A stretch of DNA of 64,000 bases from an uncultured Acidobacteriota bacterium (GCA_963770465.1 CAVYQB010000012.1:3367-67366), one strand, 5' to 3'; shown: positions 1-9,466, numbered from the stretch's first letter. A program made the numbers and translations. The notes: generated by a model from the sequence alone, not told the origin.

Positions 1-1979
1 AGCGCAAGGGATCGGTCCAGAGCTTCGAGCGACTCGTCATACTTTTTCAAGCCGCACAGCACGACTCCTTTGTAGCCCCAAGCATCCGAATCGTTGTCAA
101 ATGCCCTCGCAGCTTTGTCAAAGTACTTGAGAGCCTTTGCGTGCTCCTCCTCGTTGCCGAGTGCCAGACCATAGACGAGAAATATCCCGGGAACGGTCTT
201 ACCCTTGGCCAAGAATGGGAATAGGGTCTCGCGTGCCGCCTTAGGTTTGTCCAATCTTATCAGTGCACGAGCTTTTTGGACCGCAATGACCGGCCCGAGG
301 TCAACGTCAAGTAGAGCAGCATCTTCGTAGGCATCCAAAGCCTCCACATCCCGATTTGCGCTGGCCAGCAGTTCCCCCTGGTCGAAGAACAGCATGGCTT
401 CATTTGGACTCAAATTAATGGCGCGATCAAGAACTTGTTGGGCAAGTTCTCTTGACCCCCCGCGCGCGTACGCGCCAGCCAAGGCTCGCAACATCTCTAC
501 GTTGTGTGGGTCGTCTTCGAGCCTTTTCTCGAGTATAGGGATTAGTTCTGGAGCTCGGTCTAACCAGATCAGCGCTCGAGTGTAGTGCGGCCAATCCTCC
601 GCAATCTTGCTCAGCTCGGCGAGTTGCTGAGCGAAAGCTTGCAACTGCTCGCGGGTGCCTTTTTCTCGACTGAGAGCCCTACATAGAGTGCTAATCTCCG
701 GACTTAGATGCACGTGTGCGTCCTGAACGTCATACTGCCTTAGCGCTGCCTCGAAATAAGATTTTCCTGCGTCTCGTTCACTTGTGCTCGACAGTTTGCG
801 TTCTAGCTCCTCGCGCGAGAACCAGTACCGAATAAAATCCACCAAAAGATATAAGGGACGTTCGTGATGGGTTTTGGCTTCAACACAAATGCGCAGCAGC
901 GGCTCAGTCAGCTCGTAAAAGGCTTGTCTTCCAACTCTATCGACTCTGACGTAGCGGGTGGTTAAAAGCTGTTTCAACTGGCTGGCCGCCGTTTGGTGGG
1001 TTGCGAAACAGCTCGCCGCAATAGTGGTAACGGTTGCGGGCCTTCGGTACTCGCAGAGGAAACTTACGATTTTCTGTTGTTGGGGTGAGAGTCGAGCCAT
1101 CTGTGACTGGTAGTACGGCGTTAGGGCGTCAACGGTCTTCAGGAGAGGCTCAACCGTTAGTTTGGATTCGTTTTGGTTGAGGAAGTCATTGAGGAATCCA
1201 TAGAAGATTACGAAGATTCGATGGTTTCCTCCGGCAAGGTGCTGAACAGCCCTAACGCGTGCTCGACCCACGGCTGTATTCAGGAAGGCTGCCGTCTTCT
1301 CGTCATTATTTAAATGCGCCAATCGCTCCAGTAGGGCAATGGCGCCCTCCAGCGACAGTGGCTGTAAATGGATGACCTCAAAAAAGCCATAAAATGGCGA
1401 GATCTGACGGGAAACGCCAGAGAATAGCGCAGGCGTTGTGGCCAATATTGTCCATTGGGGATATGTTTGTATGAGAGCGCGCCATTGCCTCTGCCCTTGC
1501 TCGCCGATCTTTTCGAATACGGCGTCGAGGTTCTCGATGATCACAAACAGCGTCTTGGTTCCCAGCGTGTCTTGCAAGCAGCGCCACACGCGACCCTCTG
1601 CCTCAGATTTGCTCAACTTCGAGATATCGCCGATGCCAGCGGGGAGTTCTAGACCTGTTTCCTCTAAAGCGGCTTGCAGTGTCCGCAGTAGAAGGTCGAG
1701 AAATGAGGTTATTCCCCATTCATCTTCTTTGAGGTAGGCAATGCAAAGCTTATCCGCTAAGTCCTTTTTTGCTTTGAGCCTGTGATAAACCAGCGACACA
1801 AGGTGGGATTTCCCGATGCCCCGCGGCCCCACGAGCAGCACGTTGTGTTTGGATTTTCCGCGGGCGCTCTGATCAAAGATATCGACGAGACGCTCCGCCA
1901 CCGACTCACGTTGAACGAAGGTACCCTCGATCAGTTCTGGGCTCATGGCGGAGGGATTGAAGGTAGAAAATATCGGCAC
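1..1979 (-). CDS. AAA+/STAND-like P-loop NTPase with winged-helix-like segment and C-terminal TPR repeats (3' end runs off the window)
   Basis: My own minus-strand translation; the ORF is absent from the track because it has no stop in the window. GTG at 1979 follows an AGAGGA SD and lies 1 nt after the upstream stop. Walker A GPRGIGKS (~1806-1829), Walker B LFVIIENLD, wHTH-like LSPQQQKIVSFL...FYELTEPLL, then TPR-like repeats through position 1. Confidence 0.75.
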   Translation of the reverse strand, partial: MPIFSTFNPSAMSPELIEGTFVQRESVAERLVDIFDQSARGKSKHNVLLVGPRGIGKSHLVSLVYHRLKAKKDLADKLCIAYLKEDEWGITSFLDLLLRTLQAALEETGLELPAGIGDISKLSKSEAEGRVWRCLQDTLGTKTLFVIIENLDAVFEKIGEQGQRQWRALIQTYPQWTILATTPALFSGVSRQISPFYGFFEVIHLQPLSLEGAIALLERLAHLNNDEKTAAFLNTAVGRARVRAVQHLAGGNHRIFVIFYGFLNDFLNQNESKLTVEPLLKTVDALTPYYQSQMARLSPQQQKIVSFLCEYRRPATVTTIAASCFATHQTAASQLKQLLTTRYVRVDRVGRQAFYELTEPLLRICVEAKTHHERPLYLLVDFIRYWFSREELERKLSSTSERDAGKSYFEAALRQYDVQDAHVHLSPEISTLCRALSREKGTREQLQAFAQQLAELSKIAEDWPHYTRALIWLDRAPELIPILEKRLEDDPHNVEMLRALAGAYARGGSRELAQQVLDRAINLSPNEAMLFFDQGELLASANRDVEALDAYEDAALLDVDLGPVIAVQKARALIRLDKPKAARETLFPFLAKGKTVPGIFLVYGLALGNEEEHAKALKYFDKAARAFDNDSDAWGYKGVVLCGLKKYDESLEALDRSLA

Positions 1980-1980
1980 G

Positions 1981-3150
1981 TTATCCTCTGGTGTACGTCC
2001 ACCAACTCTGAACGATTGAATAACGGAAGCTAAACATTCCGTCTGCATCCCTGAAAAGATAATGGTCTTTTAGCAAAACCTGCAGGACCTGCCGAAAAAG
2101 TTCTTCTTCAGCAGAAGGGGTTTTGTGCTTGACCAGATTCAGAAGTTCGGATGATGCGGCTGGCCGCCCAAGTCCTGCCAGGGCGTCCAGGGCGTGCAGC
2201 GCAAGTTGCGCCTCGATCGTGCCGTAATACGTTGTTAGTCGGGTTTGATAGTAGCCGAAGTGAGCCGGATCGTTGGGGTCCGCAATGAGGTCTTTCAGAC
2301 ATGATTGAACCCGTTGGCTATGTATTTCTCTGCTGGTATTGCTTATCCTGGCAACTAAATAGTGGATGTAGTAAGGAATGTGGCCAGCTACTTCACTAAG
2401 GGCCATGCTGGCTTTACCAGGATCGTCCAGCACTTTGATGTGCTCGCCTTCGAACAGGAGATTAGCTAGGGATGCTCCGTCAATTGGCTCGATAGGGGTC
2501 ACTTCAATCGTGCGCATGTCGTTGGTCGGATCATTCGCGTAGCCATGCTTACGCAAACTTCCGATTACCTGGTGTATTCCGACCGAACCGGTAAACACCA
2601 TTCGTAAGTTGCTGTACTTCTGTCGAAGCGCCCTAAGGGAATCGAGCAACTCCATCGCATCTTGTTCCCCGGAAGTTTCCTTGACGTTGTACAGAAACAA
2701 AGGCAATTCGTCCCAGAAGAAAATTACCGTCCGCGTTTCGTCGCTGAAGATGTCGTGGAACAACGCGGAAAGAAGGTCTTTCCAGTGCCGTTTTACGTCG
2801 GGAAGTTTGACGTGCCCGATCTCTGTCCCGCCCAGTTTGCCGAGCAATCCCCATATGGCGAGACGGGCCTTCTCCTTTTTCGAAAGTATCGGTTCGACAT
2901 CAGCATAGATGCCTTCGATAAATTCGCTGGGCGAGCGAAAACCCTCTACGTCTCGCAAAAAGCAAAGCTGCTGCGCGACTGGAGCATCAGCCATCTTGCG
3001 AATCACGCTGCTCTTGCCGATTCTTCGTTCGGACGTGAGCACTATGCTTTGGGTCTCTAAGACCTGCCAGAGGTGTGCGACCAGTTTGTCTCGGCCGATA
3101 ACATCCTCCGAGGCTAGGATTCCGCCAGGATTAGCTCTCATGGCCCTCAT
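1981..3150 (-). CDS. P-loop ATPase, archaeal-ATPase (PF01637-like) type
   Basis: ORF track 1981..3174. Walker A-like SERRIGKSS and Walker B VIFFWDELP. I place the start at ATG 3150 (MRAMRANPGG) because the track's TTG 3174 falls inside a near-consensus promoter. Confidence 0.75.
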   Translation of the reverse strand: MRAMRANPGGILASEDVIGRDKLVAHLWQVLETQSIVLTSERRIGKSSVIRKMADAPVAQQLCFLRDVEGFRSPSEFIEGIYADVEPILSKKEKARLAIWGLLGKLGGTEIGHVKLPDVKRHWKDLLSALFHDIFSDETRTVIFFWDELPLFLYNVKETSGEQDAMELLDSLRALRQKYSNLRMVFTGSVGIHQVIGSLRKHGYANDPTNDMRTIEVTPIEPIDGASLANLLFEGEHIKVLDDPGKASMALSEVAGHIPYYIHYLVARISNTSREIHSQRVQSCLKDLIADPNDPAHFGYYQTRLTTYYGTIEAQLALHALDALAGLGRPAASSELLNLVKHKTPSAEEELFRQVLQVLLKDHYLFRDADGMFSFRYSIVQSWWTYTRG

Positions 3151-3156
3151 GGAGTT

Positions 3157-3184
3157 ATTGTACGTCAATTTCAACGTATGTCAA
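3157..3184 (-). promoter_or_regulatory. sigma70-like promoter TTGACA-16-TACAAT, 6 nt upstream of ATG 3150 (possible leaderless mRNA)
   Basis: The minus strand reads ttgaca tacgttgaaattgacg tacaat aactcc ATG. Two ATTGAC(A/G)TAC direct repeats overlap the promoter. Confidence 0.45.
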
Positions 3185-3244
3185 TATTAACGTATTTTTA
3201 GGCTTTGGAAGAATTACCTTATGTAGAATCAGGTTGGTGGGGCA

Positions 3245-3697
3245 TTAGGTGCGGCGGCGGTGGTGGTTGCGGAGTTGGTCCCAGTTTTCTTGGTACGGGG
3301 CCCAGCGACTGGTGGGCTGGGTGGTGTAGAGCATGATTGCGGTTTTCTTTCCGCTGACTATGCGTTTTGCGGGGATTATGTACCAGACGTCTTCGGGGAT
3401 TACGTAGGCGGCCAGGTAGTCGAAGTCTCCGCGCTTGTAGGGCAGGCCGCTGGCGGGGTGGACGTTGCAGCGGTAGCATCCCTCGGGGCGGCGGGAGGTG
3501 GTGGATTTAATTTGGACGCGCACGAAGTGGCCGTGGGTTTCGATGACGGCGTCGTAGGTGGAGGAGTCTCCCCAAGGATTGAATACGTGGAGGCCATGTT
3601 TGGCGGCTGCGGCTATGAACTGTAACTCGGCCCATTCGCCGCGGCGCTTGCCGTTCTTGATGTTGATTTTGATTCTGGGTTTTGTTTGGGATTTCAT
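3245..3697 (-). CDS. stand-alone PD-(D/E)XK endonuclease (PDDEXK_5 / group-I-intron-associated type)
   Basis: ORF 3245..3796 trimmed to internal ATG 3697 (MKSQTKPRIK). Motif GEWAELQFIAAAAKHGLHVFNPWGDSSTYDAVIE...VRVQIKS fits the D...(D/E)xK core. Very GC-rich, with shadow ORFs in other frames. Confidence 0.7.
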   Translation of the reverse strand: MKSQTKPRIKINIKNGKRRGEWAELQFIAAAAKHGLHVFNPWGDSSTYDAVIETHGHFVRVQIKSTTSRRPEGCYRCNVHPASGLPYKRGDFDYLAAYVIPEDVWYIIPAKRIVSGKKTAIMLYTTQPTSRWAPYQENWDQLRNHHRRRT

Positions 3698-3702
3698 TTG
3701 GG

Positions 3703-3732
3703 CAATAAAAAACGCGGCCTGGAGAGGCCGCG
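3703..3732 (-). terminator. intrinsic terminator (8-bp GC stem, 4-nt loop, T6 tract) ending ~6 nt before the nuclease ATG
   Basis: The minus strand reads cgcggcct-ctcc-aggccgcg followed by ttttttatt. Confidence 0.6.
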
Positions 3733-3859
3733 TCCCTTTCTTCTGATCTGTTTCTATTATATCTGGATGAAATAGGTAAACCCGCCAACTTTGCAAAAAT
3801 ATATTTGGCTTATTTGCATGGAGTTAAGATCGATCGTGTAAGTTTTGCCTATTGACAAG

Positions 3860-8494: not shown

Positions 8495-9466
8495 TCAACG
8501 ACCCTGCAATTGCTCGAAGGTGCACTGATCGGGCCTCTTCTCCGGACGCCAGCGCATGAACTTGGTTCCGTGCCTGAATCGCCCGCCAGAAAAATGGTCG
8601 TAGCTGACTTCGCACACCAGCTTGGGTTTGAGCGGTTGCCATTCGCTCGAACGTTTGGTGCTCCAGCGACTGGGGCCGCCGGGAGCTCGGCCGGTGAACC
8701 CGGGCGGACCGATGAGCGGTTCGACCGTCTTCTTCAGATCCTCGCGCTGTTCGGCGTTAAAGCTGGAAGTAAAGCCCACGTGATCGAGCTGGCCCTCATC
8801 GTTGTAGAGTCCCAATAGAAGTGAGCCGATGCCGTTACCTTTTTCCGCGTAACGAAAGCCGCCGACCACGCAATCGGCAGTGCGGATGCGTTTCACTTTG
8901 ATCATGGCGTTGCGATCGCCGGAGTGATACGGCTCATCGAGGCGTTTAGCTATGATTCCGTCCAGTCCCATGGTCGACTGCTCGCGCATCCACTTTTTGG
9001 CCTGGCGGGATTCGGTTGATGCGGGAGAAAGGCGGATCAATTCCGGAGGAGAGCTAGACGCGAAAAACTCTTCGAGCTTGCGGCGGCGTTCGCTCAGCGG
9101 CAGTTGCACTAACGACTTTCCGTGTCCATCTGCCAGAAGGTCGAAGCACATCAGCGTCGCAGGGGTTGACGCCGATAGTTTGCGAATTCGCGATTCGGCA
9201 GGATGAATCCGCATGAGCAGATCGTCAAACGAAAGACGATCGTCGACGAAGATGACGATTTCTCCATCCAGTACGAATTTGCGCGGCCTCAGCTGAACAA
9301 GGGCGGTGACTAGCTCAGGGAAATAGCGGCCCAGCGGCTGACCGGCTTTGGATTGCAGGAGAATCTTATCGCCGCTGCGAAAGGCCAGACAGCGGAAACC
9401 GTCCCACTTGGGCTCGTAGAGGTAAGGACCGTCTTCAGGTATAGCGTCAGACGACTTCGCTTCCAT
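8495..9466 (-). CDS. ATP-dependent DNA ligase (ligase-domain-only, LigC/LigD-lig type)
   Basis: Adenylation motif I EPKWDGFR. I checked the upstream in-frame sequence by hand and found no ATG, GTG or TTG before the TGA stop. Confidence 0.85.
   Translation of the reverse strand: MEAKSSDAIPEDGPYLYEPKWDGFRCLAFRSGDKILLQSKAGQPLGRYFPELVTALVQLRPRKFVLDGEIVIFVDDRLSFDDLLMRIHPAESRIRKLSASTPATLMCFDLLADGHGKSLVQLPLSERRRKLEEFFASSSPPELIRLSPASTESRQAKKWMREQSTMGLDGIIAKRLDEPYHSGDRNAMIKVKRIRTADCVVGGFRYAEKGNGIGSLLLGLYNDEGQLDHVGFTSSFNAEQREDLKKTVEPLIGPPGFTGRAPGGPSRWSTKRSSEWQPLKPKLVCEVSYDHFSGGRFRHGTKFMRWRPEKRPDQCTFEQLQGR

Follow-up and report, generated by a model that had tools for sequence, protein, structure and literature searches.

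A mobile two-gene cassette of paired NTPases with its own operator array, and its possible role as a conflict-type switch

What is the pair of nucleoside triphosphatase (NTPase) genes at the start of a 64,000-nucleotide stretch of DNA from an uncultured Acidobacteriota bacterium (GCA_963770465.1, CAVYQB010000012.1:3367-67366; the whole stretch is referred to here as the window), and does it take part in defence? The pair occupies the minus strand of positions 1 to 3,184, where an earlier note, made from the sequence alone, had described two adjoining, translationally coupled genes for P-loop NTPases, each with its own Walker A and Walker B motifs, and had proposed them as a candidate conflict module. 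Both open reading frames (ORFs) are present, and all four motifs were located (Table 1). We refer to the first NTPase gene and its product as P1, to the second as P2 and to a nuclease gene upstream of them as P3. The pair is a real, widespread and horizontally mobile two-gene cassette. The probable paralogy of P1 and P2 and a dedicated operator array are additions to what the earlier note had seen, and a conflict-type switch is the reading that we tentatively favour.

The evidence for a cassette comes from a GTDB scan (one genome per species, P1 alignment as query), which returned 80 loci in more than ten phyla; Acidobacteriota, Cyanobacteria, Planctomycetota, Gemmatimonadota, Myxococcota, Verrucomicrobiota, Gammaproteobacteria, Actinomycetota, Armatimonadota and Ignavibacteria-like bacteria are represented, among others. 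At 75 of the 80 loci, P1 is immediately followed by a P2 homolog on the same strand, confirming that the pair co-occurs outside this genome; these are all 75 of the intact loci (of the other five, three run into a contig end, one is disrupted by IS200/605 and one is a remnant). Translational coupling in the window, deduced in the earlier note from a GTG 1 nt after the TAA and a separate AGAGGA Shine-Dalgarno sequence, is borne out by the junction, and the GTG start is backed by homolog N-termini that read MPIFSTF or MAIFSTF. At other loci P1 and P2 usually abut or overlap as well, with a 4-nt overlap, for example, at L012, L014, L016, L022, L038-L041, L055 and L078. Plasmid proteins only 22-26% identical to P1 (from Segatella copri, Clostridium tagluense and Moraxella osloensis) are likewise each followed by an overlapping gene; comparison of the downstream proteins with the P2 profile, which covered Moraxella and Segatella, gave a probability of 99.8% (E 6.5e-30) for the Moraxella protein and 83.5% for the short Segatella one.

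Nothing else travels with the two genes: all-against-all clustering of the neighbouring ORFs of the 80 loci yielded no conserved third gene or effector, and neighbours are held in common only among a few closely related (near-identical) Oscillatoriales genomes. One locus lies on an integrative and conjugative element (ICE), others on plasmids, and one is flanked by repeats of about 530 bp. The acquired, non-core status suspected in the earlier note agrees with this patchy spread over more than ten phyla and with the lack of synteny with the closest relatives, in whose flanks the window's flanking genes are absent. Composition is only modestly deviant. The earlier note had described a patch of lower GC, and the direction was right (1-3184 is within the lowest 1.5% of equal-sized windows), but its contrast of about 10 points was overstated, because the computed values are 52.4% for 1-3184 and 55.1% for the whole window, about 3 points apart. 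GC z-scores are -2.2 for P1 and -1.4 for P2, the GC at third codon positions is 58% versus 63.7 +/- 3.8%, and P1 and P2 have the two lowest codon-usage likelihoods among the 23 long genes of the window (that is, the least typical synonymous usage). GC and codon usage thus do differ from the flanks, to a degree that points weakly, not strongly, to foreign origin. Three outcomes that the earlier note had counted against its own proposal (a core-gene family, no co-occurrence elsewhere, no difference in composition) were checked, and none of them was found.

Some loci record further events in the history of the cassette. In L048 (10001-12916) the 3' end of P1 is cut by an IS200/IS605-type insertion (ORFs for a 134-aa TnpA-like and a 423-aa TnpB-like protein) and P2 is missing; with a 171-codon P1 remnant in L047, this is an example of cassette decay. 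In Oscillatoriales (L021, L027-L034, L077) P1 and P2 do not overlap and are about 210-520 bp apart. In L100 (also L101 and L102) the cassette lies between the direct repeats of about 530 bp (L100:9394-9921 and L100:13941-14468; 94% identity), which comprise the 5' end of valS and the 28 nt before it (the upstream copy is a ValRS fragment of 80 aa); ISAZ013 and ISL3 transposases are next door. This arrangement suggests a Campbell-type (single-crossover) insertion of circular DNA that would have carried the cassette together with a donor valS fragment.

The cassette also carries its own control site. The promoter of P1 is formed from an operator array with unit TTGACRTACRWT, palindromic core ACGTACGT and a 16-bp period, which supplies both the -35 and the -10 elements (an 11/12 match in a promoter scan); the two full units are the only exact matches to the operator unit in the 64-kb window. 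The first ATG (3150) is 6 nt after the -10, so the mRNA would be leaderless or nearly so. In alignments of upstream DNA, the block TTGTACGTTGATATTGACATACGTT..AA.TAACGTACAAT is conserved among loci with otherwise unalignable flanks, and across all loci and phyla the unit reads TTGAC[G/A]TAC[G/A][T/A]T, with the same core. Each locus has one to three scored copies of the unit, arranged as direct repeats, and their spacing is exactly 16 bp in 14 of 15 cases and 32 bp in the other. Counted over the 150 nt upstream, the 8-mer TACGTCAA has 35 copies, versus 0.31 expected from the rest of the loci, and at least one site lies within 160 nt upstream in 47 of 63 non-redundant loci, versus 1.7% of random and 2.9% of GC-matched control windows. 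Divergent pairs have other repeats in the same place (GACTTATGTC, AACGCGCGTT, TGTACA): the Moraxella pair has the palindrome TTTAACTATAA/TTATAGTTAAA twice upstream, the Clostridium pair has TGACAAnnnAATTTTTGTyAA twice upstream, and the Segatella pair has three repeat copies, again with a 16-bp period.

With no third gene conserved alongside the pair, only P1 or P2 can supply the protein that recognizes this site. Both have a predicted winged helix, and that of P2 is most likely the reader, being of the ArsR/MarR type, with a basic wing, and the most conserved segment of the protein. The sites overlap the -35 and -10 elements, so that negative autoregulation would be the likely mode. We consider it very probable that a conserved pair with a conserved operator, under autoregulation, is the correct description of the anatomy of the cassette.

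What kind of protein is P1? The earlier note had placed its gene at 1981-3150; stop and frame stand, but the likelier start is ATG 3141, with 3150 as an alternative. The ORF spans 1981-3174 and offers ATG 3150 and TTG 3174 as further starts, and MRANPGG, the N-terminus of most of about 1,000 detected P1 homologs, corresponds to ATG 3141 in the window; the homologs have 385-400 aa. In alignment A1, residues E38, R39, R40, G42 and K43 of the variant Walker A are invariant, as are F142, W143, E145 and P147 of the Walker B region (D144 nearly so) and D359, H360, Y361, F372 and W381 of the C-terminal winged helix. The AlphaFold2 model of P1 (mean predicted local distance difference test score [pLDDT] 88, predicted template modelling score 0.85) has as its best Foldseek matches 2qen (E 6.7e-12, template modelling [TM] scores 0.62/0.68) and 2fna (E 1.4e-10, TM 0.65/0.70), which upholds the Arch-ATPase-like assignment of the earlier note; Orc1/Cdc6, RuvB, the plant helper NLRs NRC2/3 and Avs3 follow. 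Sequence profiles reach less far: the best Pfam match is AAA_22 (E 6e-4, 20.6 bits; AAA_16 scores 14.5 bits), the window P1 has no match to PF01637 at E <= 0.1 (gathering threshold 33.2 bits), the distant plasmid P1-like proteins score 26.8-30.3 bits against PF01637 (E 5e-7 to 5e-6), under the 33.2-bit cut-off, and a search of PDB sequences with the P1 profile found no relative (best E 0.27). By its model, then, P1 has a predicted Arch_ATPase fold (AAA+ core, lid and C-terminal winged helix) without passing PF01637. NCBIfam gives P1 no family name, and the family, with 2,742 clusters at 50% identity (E <= 1e-3; 675 at E <= 1e-30) and members nearly all of 380-405 aa, has no Pfam or NCBIfam entry of its own.

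P1 is thus like the Arch_ATPase proteins (PF01637, ATPase_2; 2qen is PABY2304 and 2fna is SSO1545) in its modelled fold, at TM scores of 0.62-0.70, in the RRxGK[ST] form of its Walker A and in the GhP motif of its lid; it differs in being bacterial, in being always paired with a TPR-bearing putative paralog and in having a dedicated operator. We know of no established function for PF01637 proteins. Of the top 150 relatives of P1, P0288 alone is clearly longer (932 aa); its residues 548-930 form the P1 module. It was considered as a fusion ("Rosetta stone") hint and set aside, as its 547-aa N-terminal extension has no Pfam match and may be a fusion or a gene-calling artefact.

P2 is cut by the edge of the window, and no record of the exact protein was found; its close full-length relatives have 800-830 aa. 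The NTPase, winged helix and TPR layout without a fused effector, as given in the earlier note, holds: P2 matches AAA_16 (E 6e-10), the ArsR/SmtB helix-turn-helix (HTH) model NF033788 (residues 299-362, E 1e-5) and four TPR families (Table 1), and the profile of the TPR region matches TPR proteins in PDB, whereas a profile of the N-terminal part found only P-loop or HTH fragments among PDB sequences. An AlphaFold2 model of residues 1-463 (pLDDT 78) has as its best Foldseek matches Orc1/Cdc6 (2qby, E 1e-8), ORC4, CED-4, Apaf-1 and 2fna. In the numbering of alignment A4, which we use for the invariant residues of P2, G50, P51, R52, G53, G55 and K56 of Walker A and E148 and N149 of Walker B are invariant (the Moraxella homolog has DN). 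Judged from its position, the EN pair would leave P2 without the catalytic base, so that P2 may bind ATP but hydrolyse it poorly.

Conservation is unevenly distributed along P2, with mean pairwise identities of 70% for the lid and winged helix, 54% for the NTPase, 38% for the C-terminal 150-aa domain and 32% for the TPR region, and differences in the repeat region give it lengths of 424 to 1250 aa at the various loci; this profile makes the TPR region a putative, fast-evolving sensor. The C-terminal domain lies beyond window position 1: full-length homologs (for example P0121, residues ~670-820) end, after the TPR region, in a conserved domain of about 150 aa with no match to Pfam or to PDB sequences, in which H..H, W and LLELPxEQRxL motifs are invariant.

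Is P2 a STAND protein? Its order of domains (NTPase, helical domain, winged helix, repeats) is that of STAND proteins, as seen from the AlphaFold2 structure, the HTH and TPR matches and the CED-4/Apaf-1 fold, and it has EN where the STAND-type Walker B has hhhhD[DE]. STAND models score below their cut-offs (nSTAND6 E 0.0059, 17.1 versus 27.7 bits; nSTAND1 E 0.019, 15.1 versus 27.1 bits), and the window P2 has no Pfam match to NACHT or NB-ARC; a 22%-identical P2 homolog in Moraxella passes NACHT (30.2 versus 26.7 bits). With Avs proteins and NLRs (Apaf-1, CED-4, NRC), P2 shares domain order, patchy distribution and a putative sensor that evolves fast and varies in length, and it differs from them in having no N-terminal or fused effector, EN rather than DD/DE at Walker B, a sensor-2-like GGNxR motif of the ORC/Cdc6 type, a second, probably paralogous NTPase gene and its own operator. 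The Orc1/Cdc6 proteins are the best fold matches of the P2 model, and in the Orc1-1/Orc1-3 heterodimer of S. solfataricus (2qby) two paralogs act together; like P2, these proteins have an AAA+ module and a winged helix, which in their case binds repeats beside their own gene. The pair differs from them in its bacterial hosts, its TPR extension, its repeats, which are promoter elements, and the lack of a conserved arginine finger (the candidate, SR at the box VII position, reads SRQ, SDH, SSQ or RDE among homologs), and Orc1/Cdc6 models stay far under their cut-offs for P2 (TIGR02928 23.7 versus 181.3 bits; PRK00411 12.6 versus 417).

P1 and P2 appear to be related to each other as well. Alignment of the two profiles with hhalign extends over 298 columns (E 1.3e-4), from the N-terminal strand through the winged helix, such that the winged helix of P1 aligns with that of P2. 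This alignment, together with the common fold group of the two models, identifies P1 and P2 as probable distant paralogs.

Table 1. Positions of the cassette, its promoter and its upstream neighbour in the window
Feature	Position	Strand	Remarks
P2 gene, 5' part	<1..1979	-	659 codons; GTG start 1979; cut by window edge
P2 TPR region, residues ~466-659	1..582	-	truncated by window edge; TPR_14, TPR_19, TPR_2 and TPR_16 matches
P2 winged helix, residues 297-357	909..1091	-	model helices 298-310, 316-323, 330-338; strands 343-348, 351-356
P2 degenerate Walker B LFVIIENLD	1524..1550	-	hhhhEN versus AAA+ hhhhDE; end of model strand 142-147
P2 Walker A GPRGIGKS	1806..1829	-	invariant residues given in text
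Coupling junction AGAGGA-TAA-C-GTG	1977..1989	-	AGAGGA 1989-1984; P1 TAA 1983-1981; C 1980; P2 GTG 1979-1977
P1 gene	1981..3141	-	386 aa from ATG 3141; predicted AAA+ NTPase, lid, C-terminal winged helix
P1 C-terminal winged helix (KDHY ... FRYSIVxxWW)	1999..2109	-	model helices 346-358, 375-385; strands 362-364, 370-372
P1 canonical Walker B VIFFWDELP (D144, E145)	2701..2727	-	end of model strand 138-144
P1 Walker A variant SERRIGKSS	3007..3033	-	S for first G; RRxGK[ST] signature
Promoter from operator array	3157..3195	-	three 16-bp-spaced units
Operator unit 3 TTGACGTACAAT	3168-3157	-	holds -10 TACAAT
Operator unit 2 TTGACATACGTT	3184-3173	-	holds -35 TTGACA
Operator unit 1 (partial) ATACGTT	3195-3189	-	
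P3 PD-(D/E)XK_5 endonuclease gene	3245..3697	-	150 aa, ATG 3697; PF11645 E 1.4e-18; PADLOC 'HEase' E 4e-11
Intrinsic-terminator-like hairpin and T-tract	3704..3733	-	stem 3733-3712, reported on the + strand; T-tract 3711-3704 on the coding strand

Does the cassette belong to a defence system that is already known? PADLOC-DB v2.0.0 gave no system match (best E for P1 0.027; best for P2 4.5e-4, to DndF, in the P-loop region only), in agreement with the earlier note, which had not recognized the pair as a named system. P2 has about 40 residues before its P-loop and no effector by Pfam, unlike Avs, and matches Avs2 at E 0.0043 over residues 37-64. For a named family or system, PADLOC, NCBIfam and Pfam yielded generic P-loop, TPR and HTH matches only, and we found no published description of the pair in the literature searched, which included the paper on NTP-dependent conflict systems.

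The genomic contexts are mixed. About 6 of the 11 Pfam-annotated contexts hold defence or toxin-antitoxin genes (a raw count), and the remaining contexts are housekeeping. On the ICE, which has type IV secretion system genes and an integrase, the pair has a Pycsar operon (PycC E 1e-75, an E2-like gene and PycTM) on one side and AbiEii/DUF6088 on the other; a context with a Pycsar remnant also has PemK, Abi_2 and an AAA_23 ATPase; another has an LmuB-like SMC protein with a phosphoesterase and a PIN protein (Lamassu-like); TIR-domain genes lie within 1-4 kb of the pair in some contexts; and the Segatella context has WYL and DUF262 genes. The island on the Moraxella osloensis plasmid pNP7-2 (L088:1590-12871) combines a distant pair with QatC-like, QatD, Ser/Thr kinase, dUTPase and transposase genes, together with PRTase-CE (PF24390) and an ORC-CDC6-like protein (PF24389).

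Some of these contexts have features of their own. The Pycsar-type operon (L093:6682-9498, L097:6695-9504) is divergent from the pair and upstream of it; in L097-L099 the cyclase is split into fragments of 213 aa and 162 aa and is probably a pseudogene. An ORF of 1090 aa without Pfam or PADLOC match lies between the pair and AbiEii/DUF6088 on the ICE (L093:14053-17325; also in L094-L096) and adds one more uncharacterised gene to that defence island. On Moraxella osloensis pSKB0120-2 (L107:7122-12001) two very large unannotated ORFs of 1248 aa and >1580 aa come straight after the P2-like gene, with an overlap, and may belong to the same operon in this distant variant.

That a self-sufficient cassette moves across phyla with no target genes in tow is easier to reconcile with conflict or defence than with a regulator of host physiology, and about half of the annotated contexts agree; the evidence is circumstantial. 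For the full statement, a self-contained mobile cassette with a control site that works as a conflict-type switch, we estimate a probability of roughly 45%; the defence or conflict role, taken by itself, we put at slightly less than an even chance. In this proposal the two proteins, synthesized together, would assemble into a hetero-oligomer. In the resting state it would sit on the repeats, most likely read by the P2 winged helix, and repress its own promoter. The TPR and C-terminal region would sense a trigger (a protein from an invading element is the most plausible one), and nucleotide-dependent re-oligomerization would follow, in which P2, with ATP bound, would be the switch and P1 would carry out hydrolysis. 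Switching would free the operator and yield an output, most likely either an ATP-driven action of an ORC-like assembly on DNA or the recruitment of a partner that is unlinked or varies between loci; in the clade of the window, the recruited partner could be the PD-(D/E)XK nuclease.

Several results weigh against this proposal. The 145 nearest neighbours in 60 genome loci contain no enriched family of defence genes and are mostly metabolic or housekeeping, and the defence contexts include several from related clades, which do not count as independent. The conflict module proposed in the earlier note, favoured by defence genes in about half of the annotated contexts and opposed by these nearest neighbours, is therefore not established. 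The visible flank of the window is ordinary as well, with genes for a PRC-barrel protein, alcohol dehydrogenase, an SRPBCC protein, DUF4142, an ATP-dependent ligase, 2-oxoacid:ferredoxin oxidoreductase, acetyl-CoA hydrolase and Rho. Pfam, PADLOC and NCBIfam show no effector domain in P1 or P2, and a search of 50,697 phage genomes and of IMG/VR yielded no homolog, so there is no prophage-hotspot signal. The hhalign probability for the paralogy of P1 and P2 is only 54%, and a comparison of operator variants with recognition-helix sequences (made by eye, and confounded by phylogeny) did not assign the operator to the helix of either protein.

A variant in which the output is fixed also deserves mention, although we find it doubtful: the pair would be a new kind of bacterial immune receptor, an effector-less sensor and helper parked on its own promoter, and the ORC-like, ATP-driven DNA complex formed once the hypervariable TPR and C-terminal region has sensed an invader would itself be the executioner, blocking replication or transcription without recourse to a nuclease, TIR or pore domain. 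The sensor and helper NLRs that are paired in plants are alike in being side-by-side paralogous NTPases of the NOD type of which only one has an elaborate sensor, and the P1 model matches the plant helper NLRs NRC2 and NRC3 at query-normalized TM scores of 0.57-0.62; the likeness is one of analogy, P1 having no CC, TIR or other executioner domain.

Could the cassette instead serve host physiology, as a pair of transcription factors in the style of MalT, AfsR and the LAL proteins? The TPR region would then bind a metabolite or host protein, and the pair, oligomerizing on the direct repeats in an ATP-dependent manner, would control its own promoter and unlinked host genes. The operator array does overlap a promoter, both proteins have a predicted winged helix of the DNA-binding type, there is no effector domain to account for, and many loci lie among housekeeping genes; the STAND proteins are known to include clades that regulate transcription and have no immune role (PMC13581612). 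The pair would resemble MalT and LAL proteins in having a predicted ATP-dependent switch, repeat sensor and direct-repeat array at the promoter. Such a regulator needs targets, however, and the cassette passes from phylum to phylum by itself, accompanied by no conserved neighbour or linked target. The 64-kb window has no further operator sites beyond chance (two one-mismatch matches versus 1.3 expected), and the flanks of the other loci (+/-10 kb) have only four weak pairs, inside unrelated ORFs. Operators over the -35 and -10 suggest repression and not the activation typical of MalT; neither a LuxR- nor a BTAD-type output domain is present (no GerE/LuxR domain was found in P2 or in the Pfam lists of its 800-830-aa full-length homologs); two proteins are involved in place of one; and pairs lie on ICEs and plasmids beside defence systems. 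On balance a physiological regulator is unlikely.

The nuclease gene immediately upstream, to which the earlier note had drawn attention, raises the prospect of a three-gene system. A PF11645 gene is indeed there, but its product has 150 aa and not the 183 aa of the nominal ORF, because a hairpin and T-tract lie inside the extra part of that ORF (window 3704-3796); its membership of the module is not established. The L081 homolog, in the same position, has 149 aa and is 41% identical. The hairpin is predicted to end the transcript of the upstream PRC-barrel gene and to mark the upstream limit of the P3-P1-P2 block, and we found no good promoter between it and ATG 3697. In such a system P1 and P2 would sense a signal and activate the adjoining PD-(D/E)XK_5 effector, and three facts can be cited for it: in the 105 loci examined, P3-like genes (in the window, in L081-83 [L081:5998-6447] and in L003 [L003:7983-8414]) are always upstream of P1 and on the same strand, none lies elsewhere in the 1.57 Mb of fetched loci, and their proteins are 33-41% identical where the adjacent P1 proteins are 70-79% identical, which could mean repeated recruitment to the same position. 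This divergence suggests that the genes evolve fast or that homing-endonuclease-like genes inserted at one spot several times independently. P3 is absent from about 100 other loci, including the equally close relatives L001, L002, L084 and L086, and P1-P2 have their own promoter downstream of it. By its Pfam description PF11645 includes intron-type homing endonucleases, so that P3 may be an independent selfish gene. Given its restriction to the closest acidobacterial clade, its low identity and the separate P1-P2 promoter, we regard P3 as an accessory or an independent selfish gene and not as a defining part, and a three-gene nuclease system as quite improbable; as an integral component P3 was rejected, being present in three related acidobacterial contexts only.

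That the ORC/Cdc6-like pair is the initiator or loader of a replication or maintenance module of a small mobile element, with the 16-bp repeats acting like iterons or origin recognition boxes, is highly improbable: the best fold matches of P2 are initiators on origin DNA (2qby), the direct repeats adjoin the gene on its upstream side, within AT-rich DNA that averages 42% GC, much as archaeal origins adjoin orc1/cdc6, and the 94%-identical repeats of L100 are as expected from insertion of a circle by single crossover, but the repeats number only 2-4 and fall on the -35 and -10, no gene for a helicase, an integrase or another element function is conserved beside the pair, the roughly 60 nt between the P3 stop and the repeats in the window leave no room for an unwinding element, TIGR02928 scores 23.7 versus 181 bits and the candidate arginine finger is not conserved.

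Farther along the window, at 8495-9466, there is a stand-alone gene for an ATP-dependent DNA ligase (DNA_ligase_A_M plus A_C, LigD-like), which has metabolic surroundings and appears ordinary.

The building blocks of the cassette (an AAA+/STAND-like NTPase, a winged helix and TPRs) are known; what the libraries and literature searched do not describe is their combination in an obligatory pair of putative paralogs, with an EN Walker B, no effector and a 16-bp operator array. Whatever the biology, the array predicts autoregulation and a specific protein-DNA contact, and the cassette offers a compact ATP-dependent, possibly ligand-dependent switch that would work across phyla. The P1 family is not a rare one. 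Should the pair prove to be an immune or conflict module, it would bring an architecture of two components and no effector to the STAND/NLR-like receptors of bacteria, most of which, among those investigated to date (Avs, bNACHT), are single proteins to which an effector is fused, and it would give a function to the large and unexplained Arch_ATPase-like fold group.

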